A stretch of 32,000 bases of DNA from Halomicronema hongdechloris C2206 (lineage in GTDB: Bacteria > Cyanobacteriota > Cyanobacteriia > Phormidesmidales > Phormidesmidaceae), in NCBI RefSeq assembly GCF_002075285.3, contig NZ_CP021983.2:3660001-3692000 (forward strand), given 5' to 3'. The notes below the pieces were generated by a model that was given only the letters and a program-made list of their open reading frames with translations, ran no database searches and had not been told where the DNA came from. Every line of letters begins with the position of its first letter. Position 1 is the first letter of the stretch. Below, one piece after another: positions 18,381 to 28,638 of the stretch. A program made the position numbers and the translations under genes.

Positions 18381-20663
18381 GTGGGACTAAACCGACGGGC
18401 CTTTCTACAGCAGGTAGGCTTAGCGCTGTTGGCGTTGGGCGTGAGTGAATCCACGCTCATGGGTTGGGCTGGGCGCTATCAACAGGCGCTAGCCCAGCCG
18501 GCTCGTCGCAAGTTGGCATTGTTGGTGGGCATCAATGAGTATCCGGCTACGGTGCTGGAGGTGTCGGGGACTCAGCCCTTGGGGCTACGGGGCACGTTGA
18601 TGGATGTGGAAATGCAGCGGGAATTGCTGATCCACCGCTTTGGCTTTTCTGCTAGCGATATTGTGCTTTTAACCAATGCCCAAGCGACCCGGACGGGGAT
18701 CATTGATGCCTTCCAGCACCATTTAATCGATCAGGCTCAGCCAGGGGATGCAGTTCTATTTCACTTTAGTGGCTATGGCAGCCAGATTCGCTTAGCCGAC
18801 CAGCCCGATGTCTGTCGGCGCAGTTTGGTGCCAGTGGATGGGCAGCTTCCCACTGAAAAACAGCCACAAATTGCCGATCTGATGGAAGATAGCTTGCATC
18901 AGTTGTTGCGGGCTCTTAATACCAGCCGAGTAACCACTGTGCTTGATGTGGGCTACCGCGAGTTGGGCCAGGTGCGTTGGGGTAATCTGCGGTCGCGATC
19001 GCGTCCCAATGCTCCCACGGGACAGCTAGATGACGCCACTCGTCAGCTCTGGGAGCGCTTGGGTCAGGGAGCTGATCCCTCAAACTCCTTGGGAGTGATA
19101 TTACAGGCCAGTGGGGAGAATCAGATTGCCTTAGAAGGCGAGTGGCCTGACTTCAGTGCGGGGATTTTTACCTACGCGCTGACTCAACAGCTGTGGGAGT
19201 CTCTACCTAGTATCGATCTCAGAGTGGTGATGAGTCGGACTGGAACCACTGTCCAGCGTTGGACTGGCCCGGATCAGCAGCCCCAACTTCAAAGCCAAGC
19301 GTCTAGTTCTATGGCCATGACTCCTTACGGAGTGCCTTTGAAACTAACTCGCCCTGCTGATGGCATCGTTACGGACACTATGCCAGCAGACCACCGGGTG
19401 AAGCTCTGGTTGGGGGGATTACCTCCGGCGGTCTTGGCCTATTTAGGGGATCGCTCGGTGTTCAGTTGGGGAGATACCGATCAAGCCGAGGCAACGCTGG
19501 CAACCACTCTACAGATTCAGTCCCGTCAGGGATTAGTGGCGGTGGGTCAACCAAGAACGGCGGAGATGTCTTTGCCGCAGGTGGGCGAGCGCGTGTATGA
19601 ACGGGTGCGAGTGTTACCGCGACAGTTGGATTTGGTGGTGGCTCTGGATAAAAGTCTGGAGCGTATCGAGCGGGTAGATGCGACCAGTGCCCTTTCTGGG
19701 ATTCCTTTCGTGTCTTCTACGGTGGCCGGGGAACAACCGGCCGACTGTTTGTTTGGTCGCTTGCCTGCTAAGGCTAGGCAACTGTTGGCGTCAGCCCTGC
19801 CCAATTTCCATGAGACTAGTGACGCGATGCTTTCGATGGCTCAGGGGGACAGTGAGGCTGATCCGGCGGGAGGCTATGGATTATTTTCGCCTAATCGGAC
19901 TCTTATGCCTGAGACCCTGGCCGACCATGAGGAGGCGGTAAAAACCGCGGTCAGCCGGATGACGCCCTATCTGCAGACCCTCTTGGCGGCTAAGTTATTG
20001 CGCCTAACCGATAACCAAACGGCGTCGCGGGTGGCGGTGCGGGCGAGTCTAGAGATGGTGGCTCCCCGGGAACGATTGTTGATGCAACAGCAAACGGTGC
20101 GATCGCATCCAGCTTTGCCTGAGAGTCGCTTAGCTCGCTTAATGCGGGATAATGGCTCGGCGGTGGCCCTCTCTGCCGACAGCCGTGTGCGCTATCGCAT
20201 CGATAACTTTGGTCAACAGCCCCTCTATCTCACCCTCATGACCATCGACAGCAGTGGTCGGGCAGCTGTCTTTTCTCCGGGTATTTTTCAGGCTCGCCGA
20301 GGCGAGGAAGGATTAATTATCGATACGGATACGGCCGCGATCCCAGCCGGAGGCAACCTAGTCTTGCCAGATGCTAATGGCAACTGGGGTCTACCCAAAT
20401 CAACAGCCTGGGTCGATACCTATCTATTGCTCAGTGTCCAACCCTTTCGCCGTACCTGGGAACGGCTGTGGACTCTCTTCGAAGGCTCTGGAGACCGCCG
20501 TCAGTTACGATCCCTAGAGGATCCCCTGACCATTGCCCGAGATATTTTGGCCGACCTGAACGCGGCTAGCCAGTCCCAAGAGGAAGAGACTAGTTCCTCC
20601 ACTCCCTATCGTCTGAATATGGACACCTGGGCAACGCTGGCATTTCGATATCAGGTGGTGTAG
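18381..20663 (+). CDS. Caspase-family (peptidase C14, orthocaspase-like) protein with a Tat signal and a DUF4384-like C-terminal domain. The catalytic dyad is apparently substituted.
   Basis: 760 aa with a GTG start. MGLNRRAFLQQVGLALLALG is a twin-arginine signal. The p20-like core reads KLALLVGINEYP...VLFHFSGYGSQ...VTTVLDVGY. The C-terminal part (VRYRIDNFGQQPLYLTLMTIDSSGRAAVFSPG) resembles DUF4384. Confidence 0.8.
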   Translation: MGLNRRAFLQQVGLALLALGVSESTLMGWAGRYQQALAQPARRKLALLVGINEYPATVLEVSGTQPLGLRGTLMDVEMQRELLIHRFGFSASDIVLLTNAQATRTGIIDAFQHHLIDQAQPGDAVLFHFSGYGSQIRLADQPDVCRRSLVPVDGQLPTEKQPQIADLMEDSLHQLLRALNTSRVTTVLDVGYRELGQVRWGNLRSRSRPNAPTGQLDDATRQLWERLGQGADPSNSLGVILQASGENQIALEGEWPDFSAGIFTYALTQQLWESLPSIDLRVVMSRTGTTVQRWTGPDQQPQLQSQASSSMAMTPYGVPLKLTRPADGIVTDTMPADHRVKLWLGGLPPAVLAYLGDRSVFSWGDTDQAEATLATTLQIQSRQGLVAVGQPRTAEMSLPQVGERVYERVRVLPRQLDLVVALDKSLERIERVDATSALSGIPFVSSTVAGEQPADCLFGRLPAKARQLLASALPNFHETSDAMLSMAQGDSEADPAGGYGLFSPNRTLMPETLADHEEAVKTAVSRMTPYLQTLLAAKLLRLTDNQTASRVAVRASLEMVAPRERLLMQQQTVRSHPALPESRLARLMRDNGSAVALSADSRVRYRIDNFGQQPLYLTLMTIDSSGRAAVFSPGIFQARRGEEGLIIDTDTAAIPAGGNLVLPDANGNWGLPKSTAWVDTYLLLSVQPFRRTWERLWTLFEGSGDRRQLRSLEDPLTIARDILADLNAASQSQEEETSSSTPYRLNMDTWATLAFRYQVV

Positions 20664-24102: not shown

Positions 24103-24918
24103 GTGGCACAGCATACCTGGCATTCTTCCCGCCATCGGTCCCCCTGGAATCAGGTGTTGCGTCAACTGGTACAGGCCTTTGGCTGGTTTGGTTTGGATCG
24201 CATAGCCGGGGCGGTGGCCCCAGGAATCCTACTGTGGCTGGTCGCCCTGACCGGGGGGGTGTTGTGGTTGCTGCATTGGCAGTTGGTAGTTGCGATCGCA
24301 ACTGGGCTAGGGGGCGTCTATGGCATGAAATACTGGCCTCAGCTCACGCCTGAGCCGATCCCTCGACTGCAGCAATGGCTAGCCGCGTCCTGTCAGACTG
24401 CCTGGGCCCAGGGACTCGGGCTCATGGTCGGCACCTATGGCTTGTTGGCCCTAGGCACCAGCAGTGGCAGCGTCTGGCTACCGATCATCATCGCGGCCCA
24501 GATAGGTGGAATCCTACTGCTGCGGGACTGGCCATGGCCAAAAGCCAACCGCAGACTGTCCTATCCAGGCGATGGCCTTACCGCTGCGGAGGATATCGAG
24601 CCGCTATTGGAGCGCCTCAGCAACGAGGATCCCATGATCCGCCTAGTGACGGTGCGGCAGGTACTGCGCCAGCTCAGCCATCTACCCCAAGACAGGATTT
24701 ATGTCCCCGGCACCGCTATTACAATTCACTCCCACGTCATTGACTGCCTCCACCTCATGCTGGCTCAGGAAACCGAGCCCCTGGTGCGCACTGCCATTCG
24801 AGATGGGGTGCGTCATTTGTATCCCCTGCCTCGGCTGCAACAGGGTAAACCGCCAGTGCAGCTTCACCGCCAGTCCCTATCGGTGCATCGTCACGCCGTG
24901 GAATACGTCGAGCCCTAA
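24103..24918 (+). CDS. Hypothetical membrane protein with a HEAT-like C-terminal region
   Basis: 271 aa with a GTG start. Several TM segments are followed by LERLSNEDPMIRLVTVRQVLRQL...EPLVRTAIRDGVRHL. It ends 9 nt before thyX on the same strand. Confidence 0.5.
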   Translation: MAQHTWHSSRHRSPWNQVLRQLVQAFGWFGLDRIAGAVAPGILLWLVALTGGVLWLLHWQLVVAIATGLGGVYGMKYWPQLTPEPIPRLQQWLAASCQTAWAQGLGLMVGTYGLLALGTSSGSVWLPIIIAAQIGGILLLRDWPWPKANRRLSYPGDGLTAAEDIEPLLERLSNEDPMIRLVTVRQVLRQLSHLPQDRIYVPGTAITIHSHVIDCLHLMLAQETEPLVRTAIRDGVRHLYPLPRLQQGKPPVQLHRQSLSVHRHAVEYVEP

Positions 24919-24927
24919 TCAGCTGCC

Positions 24928-27009
24928 ATGGATCGCTTCACCGTCGAAGTCATCTCCCAAACCTCCAATCCGCAGCAGGTCATTTATGCGGCCATGCACC
25001 AAGACTACGCCGAAGGCTTCGTGACCCATGAGCGGGAGCAATGGCCCAGCGAAGAGCGCTGCGGTGCGATCATTATTAATCACCTGCTAAAAGGGGGACG
25101 AGGCCATTACGGTCCCCTAGAGCATCCCCAAATTGTGCTCAATATCGGTTGGTTCCCCCACTCCACCATGCAGCAGATACGGACCCATCGGGTGGGCGTC
25201 AGTTTCGATGTTCAGTGTCTGGCTGGAGATACCGAAGTGACCTTTGTTAAGGCCTCCGGGGAGTTGAGAAAGATTCAAATTGCCGAGCTGCATGACCTGT
25301 GGACCAATGGGGAGAAAGCTATTCGTGAACGTAAGATTAGAGGCCGTAACGGTGAGCCTCCGGGACAATATCGTCGCGATTGCAAAAAGCGTCTCAAAGC
25401 CATGCGCCTACGCCTCTTGAATGAAGCAACCAGCCATTTTGAGACTGGTCATATTCGGGACATCATGTGTAGCGGCCTCCAACCGATCTATCGGATGACC
25501 TTTGAGGATGGCAGAACCCTAGACTGCACGACAAATCATCGTTTACTAACCACTGAAGGTTGGCAAACCATGAGGAAGGCGATTGGATTAGAAACTGCTC
25601 CGGATGGCGAAGTTTTAGCAATGACTCGACAGTGTAGAGTCATTTCAAATGGCATCGTTGCGGCAGGTAAAGGAATTTATCGTGATAAGACCTGGCTGGC
25701 TCGACATATTGAACTGGGACTGTCAACTAAAGAAATTGCTAATCTGGCGGAATGCTCAGAGACAGCGGTCAGAGATTGGGCAAAACGACTGGGGCTTGAA
25801 CTCAACCAAAGAGATACCCGATTTCAGGAGGGCCAAAAGCCCTGGAATTACAATCCCAATGCTCTATATAGAGACAAGCAATGGCTGGAAAAGCAGCTGC
25901 AGCAGGGCTTACCCGTTGATCAAATAGCTCAAGCTGCTGATTGCTCGATAGAAGCAATCAAAAAGTGGGTTTATCAATATGGGCTGTCGTTAAACAAGCG
26001 ACCAACGCCTTTTCAAAAAGGAGAGCCCCCCTGGAATAAAGGAAAGCCTGGGTATCAGCTGAATTTATCGCCTGAAAGCCTTAAAAAGCGTAGAGAAAAT
26101 GCTGCTTGTTATACTAAGCGAGGGCCTGAATCAAATTTTTGGAAGGGGGGTACCTCTGACCAGCGAGAACTGATTGGAGCCTGGACGCGGCAAAATGCTC
26201 CCCAAGTCCATGAGAAGTTCAACTATATTTGCCAGAGATGCGGTTGCAGGGGAGGAGAGCTTCAAGCCTATCACCTAGTGCCTGTGTTTGCTGATAAGTC
26301 GCTGGCTTATGAATTTGAAAACCTGGTCAGCCTTTGTAAGAGCTGTCATGAAAACATTCACCACAATCACTTAGAGATTGAATTTGCTGAAAATTTCCAG
26401 CCAATAACTAAACCTACCGATTGGCAGCCCAAACCCAAACCTCTGGGGCGAAAGCTAAGAGCCCATCCACTCAAAGTCATTGGCGTCGAGTATTTGGGGT
26501 TTCAAATGACCTACGATCTGGAGGTCGAAGGTCCCTGGCATAATTTTGTCGCAAATGGTTTAGTCGTTCATAATTCCTTCCGCTATACAGGTAAGCGTAT
26601 CCTCGACGTGGTTGAAGGCAAGCGGGATGTGGAAGATGTGTTCTACCTGCGGCCTGTGGGCAGCTACAGTGACCGCCAGGGTAAAAAGTATGACTACACC
26701 GCTGACCAGCGGCAGCAAGATCTGGAGTGGTGTTTAGAGGCCAGCCGTCGCTACCAGCAGCGGATCGAGGCTGGGTTTGCCGAAGAACATGCCCGCGGCT
26801 TAATTCCTTTTGATATTCGCCAGCACTGGGTGATGTCGGCCAATGTGCGATCGCTAATGCATTTACTGGACCTACGCTGGAAGGGCGATGCCCAACTTGA
26901 GGCCCAGAAACTCTGTGAAGCAATCTGGCCCCATTTTCAGGCCTGGGTACCGGCCATTGCCACCTGGTACGAAGATAGCCGCCTCAAGAAAGCCCGCCTA
27001 GCTCCCTGA
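24928..27009 (+). CDS. thyX: FAD-dependent thymidylate synthase ThyX precursor, interrupted by an intein
   Basis: The N-extein is 96 aa (...GRGHYGPLEHPQIVLNIGWFPHSTMQQIRTHRVGVSFDVQ). The C-extein is 144 aa (SFRYTGKRIL...EHARGLIPFDIRQHWVMSANVRSLMHLLDLRW...). Joined, they give a 240-aa ThyX with an intact RTHR-x8-S-x-RY signature. Confidence 0.92.
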   Translation: MDRFTVEVISQTSNPQQVIYAAMHQDYAEGFVTHEREQWPSEERCGAIIINHLLKGGRGHYGPLEHPQIVLNIGWFPHSTMQQIRTHRVGVSFDVQCLAGDTEVTFVKASGELRKIQIAELHDLWTNGEKAIRERKIRGRNGEPPGQYRRDCKKRLKAMRLRLLNEATSHFETGHIRDIMCSGLQPIYRMTFEDGRTLDCTTNHRLLTTEGWQTMRKAIGLETAPDGEVLAMTRQCRVISNGIVAAGKGIYRDKTWLARHIELGLSTKEIANLAECSETAVRDWAKRLGLELNQRDTRFQEGQKPWNYNPNALYRDKQWLEKQLQQGLPVDQIAQAADCSIEAIKKWVYQYGLSLNKRPTPFQKGEPPWNKGKPGYQLNLSPESLKKRRENAACYTKRGPESNFWKGGTSDQRELIGAWTRQNAPQVHEKFNYICQRCGCRGGELQAYHLVPVFADKSLAYEFENLVSLCKSCHENIHHNHLEIEFAENFQPITKPTDWQPKPKPLGRKLRAHPLKVIGVEYLGFQMTYDLEVEGPWHNFVANGLVVHNSFRYTGKRILDVVEGKRDVEDVFYLRPVGSYSDRQGKKYDYTADQRQQDLEWCLEASRRYQQRIEAGFAEEHARGLIPFDIRQHWVMSANVRSLMHLLDLRWKGDAQLEAQKLCEAIWPHFQAWVPAIATWYEDSRLKKARLAP
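25216..26574 (+). mobile_element. ThyX intein (453 aa) with an HNH-type homing endonuclease
   Basis: Block A is CLAGDTEVTF (Cys1 at 25216-25218). Block B is TLDCTTNH. Blocks F and G are YDLEVEGPWHNFVANGLVVHN, ending at 26574. The +1 Ser codon is at 26575-26577. Confidence 0.9.
26224..26370 (+). other. HNH nuclease module inside the intein
   Basis: YICQRCGCRGGELQAYHLVPVFADKSLAYEFENLVSLCKSCHENIHHN has paired CxxC zinc ligands flanking the His...Asn...His pattern. Confidence 0.8.
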
Positions 27010-27558
27010 ACTCACGGGGGTAGCCTTGGCCACCGAGCCGTTGCCGGGTCCGAGGGTGAGCTCGAGGGCTTGGTTTTGGGCATAGGCTTTCACAGCCTGG
27101 CGGTAGACCCGCTCATTGCTAGGCAGATCGACGAGTTGCCCTTGGTAGTCGAAGCTGAAAGCATACTCGACGGATTTTAGTAATTGTGGATCGGTGCGCT
27201 TTTCCCGAGGTTTTTGTCGGGCTTCTAGGTCATCGACTGTAGGACGGGGCGGTAAAGCTGGCCACCACAGTCCCTGATCATCAGGTCCCGTGACCGCCGC
27301 CGCCGGTTCTAGACCGTTGCGATTCACTAGAGTATTGCTGGCGAAGGTTTCTCGCCGGATACGCCGCTCCCGATCGAAATTTTCCCGGGCGTATTCTACC
27401 TGCCAGGTATAGACCACCGTGGCAGTGGCGGTGTAGTCCTCAACGGTGACGGTGTCTCCAACCGCCAGACGATGGCAACCACTGCTGCCGGTTAATAACC
27501 AAGGGAGCACGGTAACTCCCAGCAGTAGGGAGTAACGACGAGGATGATAAGACATCAT
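26998..27558 (-). CDS. Hypothetical lipoprotein
   Basis: I moved the start from 27801 to the internal ATG at 27558. MMSYHPRRYSLLLGVTVLPWLLTGSSGC is a signal peptide with a lipobox-like SSGC. The upstream 81 codons of the track ORF run through a tandem repeat. The 3' end overlaps the thyX stop by 12 nt, convergently. Confidence 0.55.
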   Translation of the reverse strand: MMSYHPRRYSLLLGVTVLPWLLTGSSGCHRLAVGDTVTVEDYTATATVVYTWQVEYARENFDRERRIRRETFASNTLVNRNGLEPAAAVTGPDDQGLWWPALPPRPTVDDLEARQKPREKRTDPQLLKSVEYAFSFDYQGQLVDLPSNERVYRQAVKAYAQNQALELTLGPGNGSVAKATPVSSGS

Positions 27559-27769
27559 TATCTGCCATCGGCATTGCTGGATGGATACAGCATTTCCTGG
27601 CCGGGTGAGGTAAAGACCACGTACCACTTCCTGCATTTCAAGGGCTTCATGGCTATCTGTGTACCTCACTAGCTTCAGAAACGCTGTAGTTAAGTTACTC
27701 ATCTTAAGAGACAACTCAAAGAGATTATTAGAAATCCTTTCGCTAGCGCAACGACTGCTTACAATCAAT

Positions 27770-27824
27770 GGATACATCCGGGGATACATCCGGGGATACA
27801 TCCGGGGATACCCATCCGGGGATT
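27770..27824. repeat. Tandem array of a 12-nt unit, GGATACATCCGG: three perfect copies, one copy with a 2-nt insertion, and a partial copy
   Basis: Perfect copies sit at 27770-27781, 27782-27793 and 27794-27805. A degenerate copy, GGATACCCATCCGG, is at 27806-27819, followed by GGATT. A HIP1 site follows at 27836. Confidence 0.9.
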
Positions 27825-28165
27825 GACTTGAGGATGCGATCGCACCCTTTAGATACTTCGTTGAGAATTCAGGAGGGTTAAGCGCTAAATCGTAAAGCTT
27901 TATTTCAAAACATTACAGCCTATGATTTCCAGCTGTAATTCCTCACTAAGCGTCATCTTCTTTAAGGTTGTGACCTGATCAGGTCGCAGCATTGCCATTG
28001 CCTGTGATCTAATAGCTGATGCAGCTTGACACACCTCCTAGGGCAAAGCTAGCCCAACATCGAGCAGTAATCTGTGGGTCAGCGTCAGAACTAGGCTTGG
28101 CCAAGGCATGACATTGTTATCCGGGTGATCAGGCATTGATTGAACGGTCGTCTTAATCCGCTGCC

Positions 28166-28191
28166 TATGCTCATTACTTATGCTCATTACT
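28166..28191. repeat. Perfect tandem duplication of a 13-nt unit, TATGCTCATTACT x2
   Basis: Read directly from the sequence, about 60 nt upstream of the ATG at 28252. Confidence 0.8.
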
Positions 28192-28251
28192 TGAGTGATT
28201 TAACCGGCTTCAAGCCGCATTTACCTAAGATTGTTACCATGGCCATTCCCG

Positions 28252-28638
28252 ATGAAATTCTCCCAAGCATACATCCTGGTTCTAGATTCTTCCCGGCGTG
28301 ATACTCAAGCCATTTATACCCTGTTAAAACAACTGCGCTGTCCAGTGTTTGTGGCCGAAACGATCGACCAAGCCGTTGCTAAAGCCAAGCAATGCTCTCC
28401 CTATCTAGTCATCCTGAGGGGAGACTATCAAGAGGGTGCTCCTGGCCTCATAGAACAACTGCGGCAAACCATGCAGGCAGCTGAGGTAACCATTGTGGCT
28501 TTAACTGAATCTAGCAAGCCGAGTTGGGGAGATCACATAGAGCAACTGGGGCTTGATGGTGTCTTTGTCGAACCCCTCAACGGCGATGTCCTCAACCTAT
28601 TGGTGGATTCAGCCATGGCTAAACAAGCCTATGCTTAG
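28252..28638 (+). CDS. Stand-alone CheY-like receiver with degenerate phosphorylation residues (pseudo-receiver)
   Basis: MKFSQAYILVLDSS...YLVILRGDYQ...TIVALTESS...GVFVEPL has the receiver fold pattern. Against CheY, it reads DS for DD, R at the phospho-Asp position, and EP for KP. The track ORF starts at TTG 28231; ATG 28252 is more plausible. Confidence 0.6.
   Translation: MKFSQAYILVLDSSRRDTQAIYTLLKQLRCPVFVAETIDQAVAKAKQCSPYLVILRGDYQEGAPGLIEQLRQTMQAAEVTIVALTESSKPSWGDHIEQLGLDGVFVEPLNGDVLNLLVDSAMAKQAYA

Follow-up and report, generated by a model that had tools for sequence, protein, structure and literature searches.

The stretch of DNA analysed here, referred to as the window, comprises 32,000 nucleotides of the genome of the cyanobacterium Halomicronema hongdechloris C2206 (contig NZ_CP021983.2, positions 3,660,001 to 3,692,000 of the forward strand), and all positions given below are counted from its first letter. 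It contains a thyX open reading frame (ORF) of 693 aa (24928..27009, plus strand), which encodes a flavin-dependent thymidylate synthase interrupted in frame by an intein. The intein spans exactly 453 codons (CLAGDTEVTF...FVANGLVVHN in translation) and corresponds to residues 97-549 of the precursor. Unless written as Cys1, His452, Asn453 or Ser+1, residues are numbered along the precursor. The gene is divided as follows.

24928..25215, plus strand: thyX N-extein, residues 1-96, ending RTHRVGVSFDVQ; joins the C-extein without a gap in 120 intein-less orthologues
25216..26574, plus strand: complete intein, 453 codons, from Cys1 to His452-Asn453; based on translation, profiles, conservation and fold
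26575..27009, plus strand: thyX C-extein, residues 550-693 plus the stop codon, opening with the Ser+1 of S-F-R-Y; S550 is invariant in 86/86 relatives

The N-extein end, RTHRVGVSFDVQ, lies immediately 5′ of the intein and SFRYTGKR immediately 3′ of it; in the translated precursor the residues directly before Cys1 are QQIRTHRVGVSFDVQ. Cys1 is encoded by TGT (25216-25218), Asn453 by AAT (26572-26574) and Ser+1 by TCC (26575-26577). Pfam searches of the precursor returned a Thy1 domain split in two, together with Intein_splicing (PF14890; E 1e-10, 40-42 bits against a cut-off of 35.8) and HNH (PF01844; E 2e-6, 27-28 bits against 21.4). The intein C-terminus model TIGR01443 was matched with 26 bits (cut-off 15.6), and the NCBIfam model for intein N-termini was matched as well. 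The alignment of the thyX model TIGR02170 to the precursor (157 bits) was split in two, its second part restarting at residue 549 and profile position 86. When the intein was removed in silico, the resulting 240-aa product aligned to the same model without interruption over positions 2-211 of 211, with 180.7 bits (cut-off 87.9). The domain and profile evidence for an intein is therefore far beyond chance. The precursor is 100% identical to a public H. hongdechloris C2206 protein labelled only "thymidylate synthase, flavin-dependent", for which the Pfam intein and HNH domains were already precomputed in the collection searched.

An initial annotation, made from the letters of the window, had placed a 453-aa intein at 25216-26574, and translation, profiles and intein-less orthologues confirm these boundaries to the base. 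The orthologues also bear out its claim that removal of the insert recreates a normal ThyX. The 120 proteins that match the spliced extein best all lack the intein, are 78-94% identical to that extein, and in 114 of the 120 cases are exactly 240 aa long. All 120 read THRVG[VIL]SxDVQSxRY without a gap, so that alignment to intein-less ThyX proteins places the edges of the insert at residues 97 and 549, as had been proposed. A chance fusion of ORFs was considered as well and is excluded by more than 100 orthologues with identical junctions.

The spliced motif reads T86-H87-R88-VGVSFDVQ-S-F-R-Y. The ThyX signature that had been expected at the junction is thus present as regards its S-x-RY part and its X8 spacing, but its first residue is Thr (T-H-R) rather than the Arg of R-H-R, as in other cyanobacteria. 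Phmmer and profile searches of Protein Data Bank (PDB) sequences gave a confident alignment for the C-terminal half of ThyX and a weak one for the motif region. In the latter, the alignment to Thermotoga maritima ThyX (chain numbering adjusted for a 12-residue tag; motif-region domain score -1.8) pairs R78-H79-R80 with T86-H87-R88. By the X8 spacing of the motif, Ser97 of the 240-aa protein (precursor S550) matches S88 in the S-G-R-Y of the T. maritima enzyme; because the pairwise alignment is weak here, this equivalence is based largely on the pattern of the motif and on the unbroken TIGR02170 match. Chiefly on these grounds, the earlier proposal that the Ser of the ThyX S-x-R-Y motif doubles as the +1 splicing nucleophile is supported.

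Between its two junctions the intein is composed of the following parts, all on the plus strand.

25216..25659, plus strand: HINT N-terminal lobe, residues 97-244; beta-strands with a predicted local distance difference test score (pLDDT) of about 85-90 and Foldseek matches to DnaB mini-inteins
25672..25860, plus strand: helix-turn-helix (HTH) DNA-binding module, copy 1, residues 249-311; sub-threshold Pfam matches to HTH_28, HTH_23 and Sigma70_r4_2, helices at 254-287
25861..26049, plus strand: second copy of the HTH DNA-binding module, residues 312-374; adjoins the first copy in exact tandem, based on model and sequence
26050..26217, plus strand: linker and helical region, residues 375-430, with a conserved SNFWKGG...IGAWTRQ motif that is kept across the wider family
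26218..26373, plus strand: HNH nuclease domain, residues 431-482; PF01844, beta-beta-alpha in the model
26263..26271, plus strand: codons CAA-GCC-TAT, Q446-A447-Y448, just before the catalytic His449; family consensus H-A-H
26413..26574, plus strand: HINT C-terminal lobe, residues 496-549, with blocks F and G, TYDLEVEGPWHNFVANGLVVHN; TIGR01443 match

The N-terminal lobe holds block A (CLAGDTEVTF) and block B (C200-T201-T-N-H204), as well as a family-specific insertion at about residues 118-160 (ELHDLWTNGEK...). Blocks F and G end in ...TYDLEVEGPWHNFVANGLVVH548-N549, after which S550 follows. The two HTH copies, each of 63 residues, are 46% identical to each other (E 3e-22); in the consensus of the wider intein family the module is present in a single copy. 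The HNH domain contains C435-x-x-C438, L-Q446-A-Y448-H449, N465 and C470-x-x-C473-H474-x-x-x-H478, so that two CxxC zinc knuckles (C435-x-x-C438 and C470-x-x-C473) flank the HNH motif. Although the initial annotation had foreseen an endonuclease, it had not named its type; the present analysis identifies it as an HNH endonuclease accompanied by a duplicated HTH module. A LAGLIDADG endonuclease was rejected, since no such Pfam match was obtained whereas the HNH match exceeds its cut-off.

The precursor was modelled with AlphaFold2 from an alignment of 86 sequences (mean pLDDT 79.6), and the model reproduces this arrangement. It consists, in order, of the N-terminal part of ThyX (residues 1-96), a beta-rich HINT N-lobe (97-244), a first and a second three-helix unit (254-287 and 317-350), a linker (about 351-430), a beta-beta-alpha unit (445-479), the HINT C-lobe (510-549) and the C-terminal part of ThyX (550-693). 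The linker is predicted to be partly disordered, with pLDDT below 50 at residues 359-376 and 397-412 and helices at 382-395 and 411-430. When compared by Foldseek, the HINT part of the model matched DnaB, RecA and DnaE inteins (E 8e-8 to 1e-4; target-normalised TM-score of 0.81 for 6frg) and the exteins matched the T. maritima flavin-dependent thymidylate synthase. Blocks A, B, F and G, which had been read off the letters, are thus all present, and the model and the Foldseek matches back the HINT fold.

Among 86 cyanobacterial copies, no variation occurs at the residues expected to act in splicing (C97, T201, H204, D530, H548, N549 and S550), and H538 of the C-lobe is invariant among the relatives. 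The same degree of conservation (86/86) applies to the nuclease residues C435, C438, H449, N465, C470, C473, H474 and H478. Because both sets of residues are invariant, the sequence identifies the element as a class-1 HINT intein carrying a zinc-knuckle HNH-type endonuclease.

Inteins of this kind turned out to be widespread. The initial annotation had mentioned ThyX inteins catalogued in a few cyanobacteria, but the element is not rare: more than 100 protein clusters (90% identity), 684-695 aa in length, have this intein at an identical position. The carrier genera include Nostoc, Leptolyngbya, Oscillatoria, Microcoleus, Lusitaniella, Mastigocoleus, Nodosilinea, Phormidesmis and others, and the junctions of the intein-bearing relatives all read ...SFDVQ|C...HN|S.RY. 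The empty site was found in 80 cyanobacterial genomes, among them two uncultured Halomicronema metagenome-assembled genomes, and the DNA of the empty site is nearly invariant at codon positions 1 and 2 over at least 70 bp. The identities of exteins and inteins are loosely correlated (Spearman 0.44). Some conflicts are pronounced: in the pair P0005/P0017 the exteins are 96% and the inteins 63% identical, whereas in the pair P0044/P0118 the exteins are 67% and the inteins 83% identical. Intein sub-lineages of 453 and 444 aa were found in near-identical hosts. For the family, both a sporadic distribution and a conflict between extein and intein identities are shown by these data.

Several members have lost parts of the endonuclease region. 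A class of 558 aa (22 clusters within P0075-P0104, including Nodosilinea) has a 135-aa deletion that takes the second HTH unit and the N-terminal half of the HNH domain. In P0046 (599 aa) both HTH units are gone and a Gln is aligned to the otherwise invariant His449 (AHQ vs AHH), and in P0012 (647 aa) the second HTH unit alone is missing. The splicing residues are kept in all three deletion-form sequences inspected.

The G+C content inside the H. hongdechloris intein is 0.44-0.50 compared to 0.56-0.59 in its flanks, a fall of about 10 points. This dip, the sporadic presence among close relatives, the extein/intein conflict and the decay forms are indirect signs that the element is mobile or once was. 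A separate dip, as deep as that of the intein, occurs downstream of thyX at 27500..28400 (0.43-0.48), in the 3′ part of the minus-strand ORF there and the adjoining intergenic region. Among the relatives, P0056, an intein-bearing thyX with 66% identity, is assigned by annotation to a plasmid of Nostoc sp. NIES-4103; plasmid-borne copies of this type might carry the intein from one cyanobacterium to another.

On the basis of the features described above we propose the following course of events. The intein, which sits in frame between Gln96 and the Ser of S-x-R-Y in the chromosomal thyX, would be translated as part of the 693-aa precursor. Splicing would start with an N-S acyl shift at Cys1, continue with trans-esterification onto the hydroxyl of Ser+1 and with cyclisation of Asn453, assisted by His452, and be completed by an O-N shift, yielding the 240-aa ThyX and the free 453-aa intein. 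The homing-endonuclease module between the HINT lobes consists of the two tandem HTH units, the conserved linker and the zinc-knuckle HNH nuclease. In the family, its target would be intein-less alleles: the module presumably recognises their highly conserved ThyX-motif DNA and cuts it, after which repair would copy the intein into them. The H. hongdechloris copy would then represent a post-fixation stage of this homing cycle.

The latter suggestion is prompted by the HNH motif of this copy, two substitutions in which had escaped the initial annotation, whose account of the endonuclease did not mention Q446 and Y448. Here the motif reads L-Q-A-Y-H, whereas between 82 and 85 of the 86 sequences read L-H-A-H-H. 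Gln at position 446 occurs in three of the 86 copies, i.e. in this one and two others. Tyr at position 448 (TAT, 26269-26271) is unique to H. hongdechloris, the other 85 copies having His, and the corresponding position is His in at least 90% of the far more divergent wider family. When departures were counted over columns that are at least 90% conserved, none was found in the extein (0/122) or in the linker (0/30), one in the HTH region (1/29) and four in the HINT lobes (4/100; Y122H, V163L, G169S and V179I). In the HNH domain, two of 28 such columns depart from the consensus, both of them in the active-site motif, and only two relatives have more HNH departures than this copy. In other HNH nucleases, the residue preceding the general-base His helps to hold the catalytic metal (D/H-H dyad). 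Since the splicing residues are intact and two His residues of the motif are substituted, the copy carrying H446Q and H448Y is most likely a still-splicing intein with a weakened or inactive nuclease. Taken as a whole, we consider the explanation that this is a class-1 intein, inserted in frame in thyX, with an HNH homing module, intact splicing and a weakened or dead nuclease to be highly probable.

Several points weigh against it. Neither the general-base His449 nor any other of the remaining nuclease residues is altered, and a Tyr at position 448 might be tolerated. The effect ascribed to H448Y and H446Q is argued from the D/H-H dyad of other HNH nucleases. The case for splicing, in turn, is built on residue conservation and on a relative whose HINT lobes show 26-51% identity. 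Finally, the strong conservation of the nuclease over 85 relatives could reflect a benefit to the host rather than homing.

The alternative that survives best is that the element is fully active, i.e. that it splices and that its HNH endonuclease still cuts intein-less thyX, so that the copy is mobile. Such activity would agree with the presence of the catalytic His449, N465, H474 and H478 and of both CxxC knuckles, with the absence of excess departures in the linker and HTH parts of the endonuclease region, and with the purifying selection on the nuclease and the horizontal transfer seen in the family. However, position 448 is His in every one of the other cyanobacterial copies and is strongly conserved beyond them, and the alteration of two of the three His residues of LHAHH together is found in this copy alone. 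For these reasons we regard full activity as unlikely, although it is the most serious of the competing explanations.

A second alternative is that the intein is conditional, with redox- or otherwise signal-gated splicing coupling the synthesis of deoxythymidine monophosphate to the physiology of the cell. The insertion lies within the active-site motif of the enzyme, and the precursor should therefore be inactive until spliced. Moreover, the intein has two further cysteines besides Cys1, namely Cys152 (at least 90% conserved) and Cys200 (85/86), the latter of which adjoins block B and is specific to the cyanobacterial clade, and long retention at one site over many genera would fit a benefit to the host. 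The many close relatives without the intein argue against this, and the decay forms and the conflict between extein and intein identities fit a selfish element, which makes a regulatory role improbable. It is most improbable that the insertion does not splice or belongs to a decaying pseudogene, with an unprocessed 693-aa product and thymidylate from another enzyme: the 32-kb window leaves room for thyA or a second thyX elsewhere in the 5.6-Mb genome, but the open frame over 693 codons, the exteins without departures from conserved columns and the intactness of every splicing residue are signs of continuing selection on ThyX and on splicing. The earlier claim that ThyX is essential in this organism would hold only if its genome lacks thyA.

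Relatives of the element, most likely a splicing intein with an impaired nuclease, were also found outside cyanobacteria. An exhaustive search with the intein part, using representatives at 50% identity, gave 7883 matches with E <= 1e-3 and 150 with E <= 1e-30. When 68 of the best representatives were scanned, 67 proved to be Thy1 proteins and 60 contained an HNH domain. Insertion sites were classed in 132 intact C-junctions according to where the motif Ser lies relative to the +1 residue (its offset); the C-junction alone was used because a hidden Markov model of the N-junction built from cyanobacterial sequences missed many distant representatives. The classes were as follows.

Offset 0: 34 representatives
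Offset +3: 11 representatives
Offset +4: 2 representatives
Offset +5: 73 representatives
Offset +6: 3 representatives
Offset -1: about 8 representatives, without a match to S-x-R-[YFA] and assigned by inspection as SRAxP-type junctions

The +1 residue is Ser or Cys throughout, Cys being in the minority. Related inteins with HTH and HNH parts are thus present at no fewer than four neighbouring positions of the ThyX motif in very diverse ThyX subfamilies (P0121-P0269), and related inteins are spread over bacteria and mycobacteriophages; in cyanobacterial ThyX itself two insertion points are used, the one found in Halomicronema and the one of the Ter ThyX intein of Trichodesmium erythraeum described below. 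Nearest-neighbour inteins belong to the same site class in 106 of 127 cases, compared to 39% by chance, which leaves 21 exceptions. The clearest example of related inteins at different sites is provided by P0207 and P0255, whose inteins are 51% and whose exteins are 46% identical. Their spliced motifs align without a gap (RHRIA^SYTQESTRY vs RHRVASY^SQESTRY), and their insertion points are therefore two codons apart.

A tentative explanation, for which we would not claim even chances, is that the HNH inteins of the ThyX motif belong to a single lineage whose insertion point has shifted again and again, by one to six codons, between Ser and Cys codons of the motif. If true, this would mean that recognition and cleavage of the motif DNA are uncoupled from the exact point of integration. 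The lineage would also supply a naturally occurring series in which the colonisation of new sites by inteins could be studied, with the Halomicronema copy as one fixed endpoint with a decaying nuclease.

One further cyanobacterial ThyX, P0050 (1024 aa), carries, besides the HNH intein, a second and unrelated intein further upstream (RGHYG|CYSADTEVLT...VMVCGN|CTEHPQ), the presence of which points to a second intein hot spot in ThyX. The start of this second intein resembles that of the Thy1 intein of Corynebacterium phage P1201 (CYSSDTEVLT..., junction KHH/SVL; supplement of PMC7090010).

The neighbours of thyX are ordinary chromosomal genes (proS, genes for sigma factors, recF-like, radC, a response regulator gene, nnr, mnmA, sat, a gene for a caspase-domain protein, rpiA and lexA). 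No transposase or integrase was detected among the 18 larger ORFs of the window that were tested, which is consistent with the earlier statement that the intein is its sole clear selfish element. Three ORFs of the window were recorded in addition.

24103..24918, plus strand: ORF of 271 aa without a Pfam match, ending 10 bp before the thyX start codon
26998..27801, minus strand: ORF of 267 aa without a Pfam match, overlapping the thyX stop by 12 bp; its product starts with MYPRMYPRMYP
18381..20663, plus strand: ORF of 760 aa with an N-terminal caspase (Peptidase_C14) domain (E 6e-14) and about 450 further residues without a domain assignment

ThyX inteins and HNH inteins have both been documented before, and a single locus matters little in this respect; the shifting of insertion points across the family is the more interesting lead. 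The states found in the family, comprising intact inteins, nuclease point mutants, HTH and HNH deletions and empty sites, illustrate the homing cycle, and the grouping of related inteins at neighbouring codons of a single active-site motif bears on the question of how inteins reach new sites.

With respect to known systems, the first HNH intein was described by Dalgaard et al. (1997, NAR 25:4626), as cited in PMC5050341 and in the 2025 bioRxiv paper referred to below. Likened by architecture alone, it shares with the H. hongdechloris intein an HNH nuclease placed in frame between the HINT lobes instead of a LAGLIDADG enzyme, and it differs in its host protein. The closest solved HINT structures are those of the DnaB mini-inteins (Ssp DnaB, 1mi8/6frg; Npu DnaB, 4o1r), which were found by phmmer with E values of 1e-9 to 1e-8 and whose blocks F and G are nearly identical to those of H. 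hongdechloris (HNFVAN..VHN). The DnaB mini-inteins reside however in another host protein and are without the HTH duplication. The endonuclease of native DnaB inteins, where present, is of the LAGLIDADG rather than the HNH type.

Thymidylate-synthase inteins and inteins with non-canonical endonucleases have been reported in actinobacteriophages (PMC5050341; bioRxiv 10.1101/2025.01.02.630785). The ThyX inteins of cluster C1 mycobacteriophages described in these papers resemble the present one in that the host protein is ThyX and an HNH endonuclease is carried in frame. By tblastn, ThyX-like genes in 15 mycobacteriophage genome records showed related HNH and HINT-C regions, with 32-36% identity over residues 317-453 (counted from Cys1 of the intein), and no similarity was detected in the HTH region or in the N-lobe. 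They differ by their phage host and by the distant ThyX subfamily in which they are inserted.

The Ter ThyX intein of Trichodesmium erythraeum IMS101 (InBase) is a characterised intein of cyanobacterial ThyX. Its description is credited to Liu & Yang (2004, J Bacteriol 186:6316), as cited in PMC4143802; as a mini-intein it splices to about 100% in E. coli (PMC3620165), which provides a precedent for splicing of the present intein, and it was used again in PMC7090010. The supplement of the latter gives the native junction as IGC/SFD and was also the source of the mini-intein sequence; since its text was extracted by machine from a PDF, minor errors are possible (one Val was restored in ...NGLVVHN). 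Ter and H. hongdechloris inteins, aligned lobe by lobe, share the host protein, the phylum and the ThyX motif; both are class-1 inteins of the same HINT family with Cys1, His-Asn and Ser+1. The C-lobes are 51% identical over 43 aa (ITYDLEVEHPEHNFIANGLVVHN vs MTYDLEVEGPWHNFVANGLVVHN) and the N-lobes 26% identical over 114 aa, the latter having a ...LW..G.K insertion in common. Unlike the H. hongdechloris intein (DVQ|SFR), the Ter intein is inserted at THRIGC|SFDVQS, five codons upstream. It is also much smaller, the mini-intein measuring about 163-170 aa after a 134-aa deletion, and its endonuclease region has been described merely as putative, complete or partial. Because their insertion points differ, the two are not alleles by intein nomenclature, in agreement with the suggestion of the initial annotation that the class might be known but perhaps not this allele. 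The H. hongdechloris element is a genuine intein of a kind that is widespread in cyanobacteria, and a relative but not an allele of the Ter ThyX intein. Next to the site of the biotechnologically used Ter intein, it adds another insertion point of cyanobacterial ThyX that many proteins share, and its distinct DVQ/SFR junction and HINT sequence may be of interest to those who build orthogonal split inteins.

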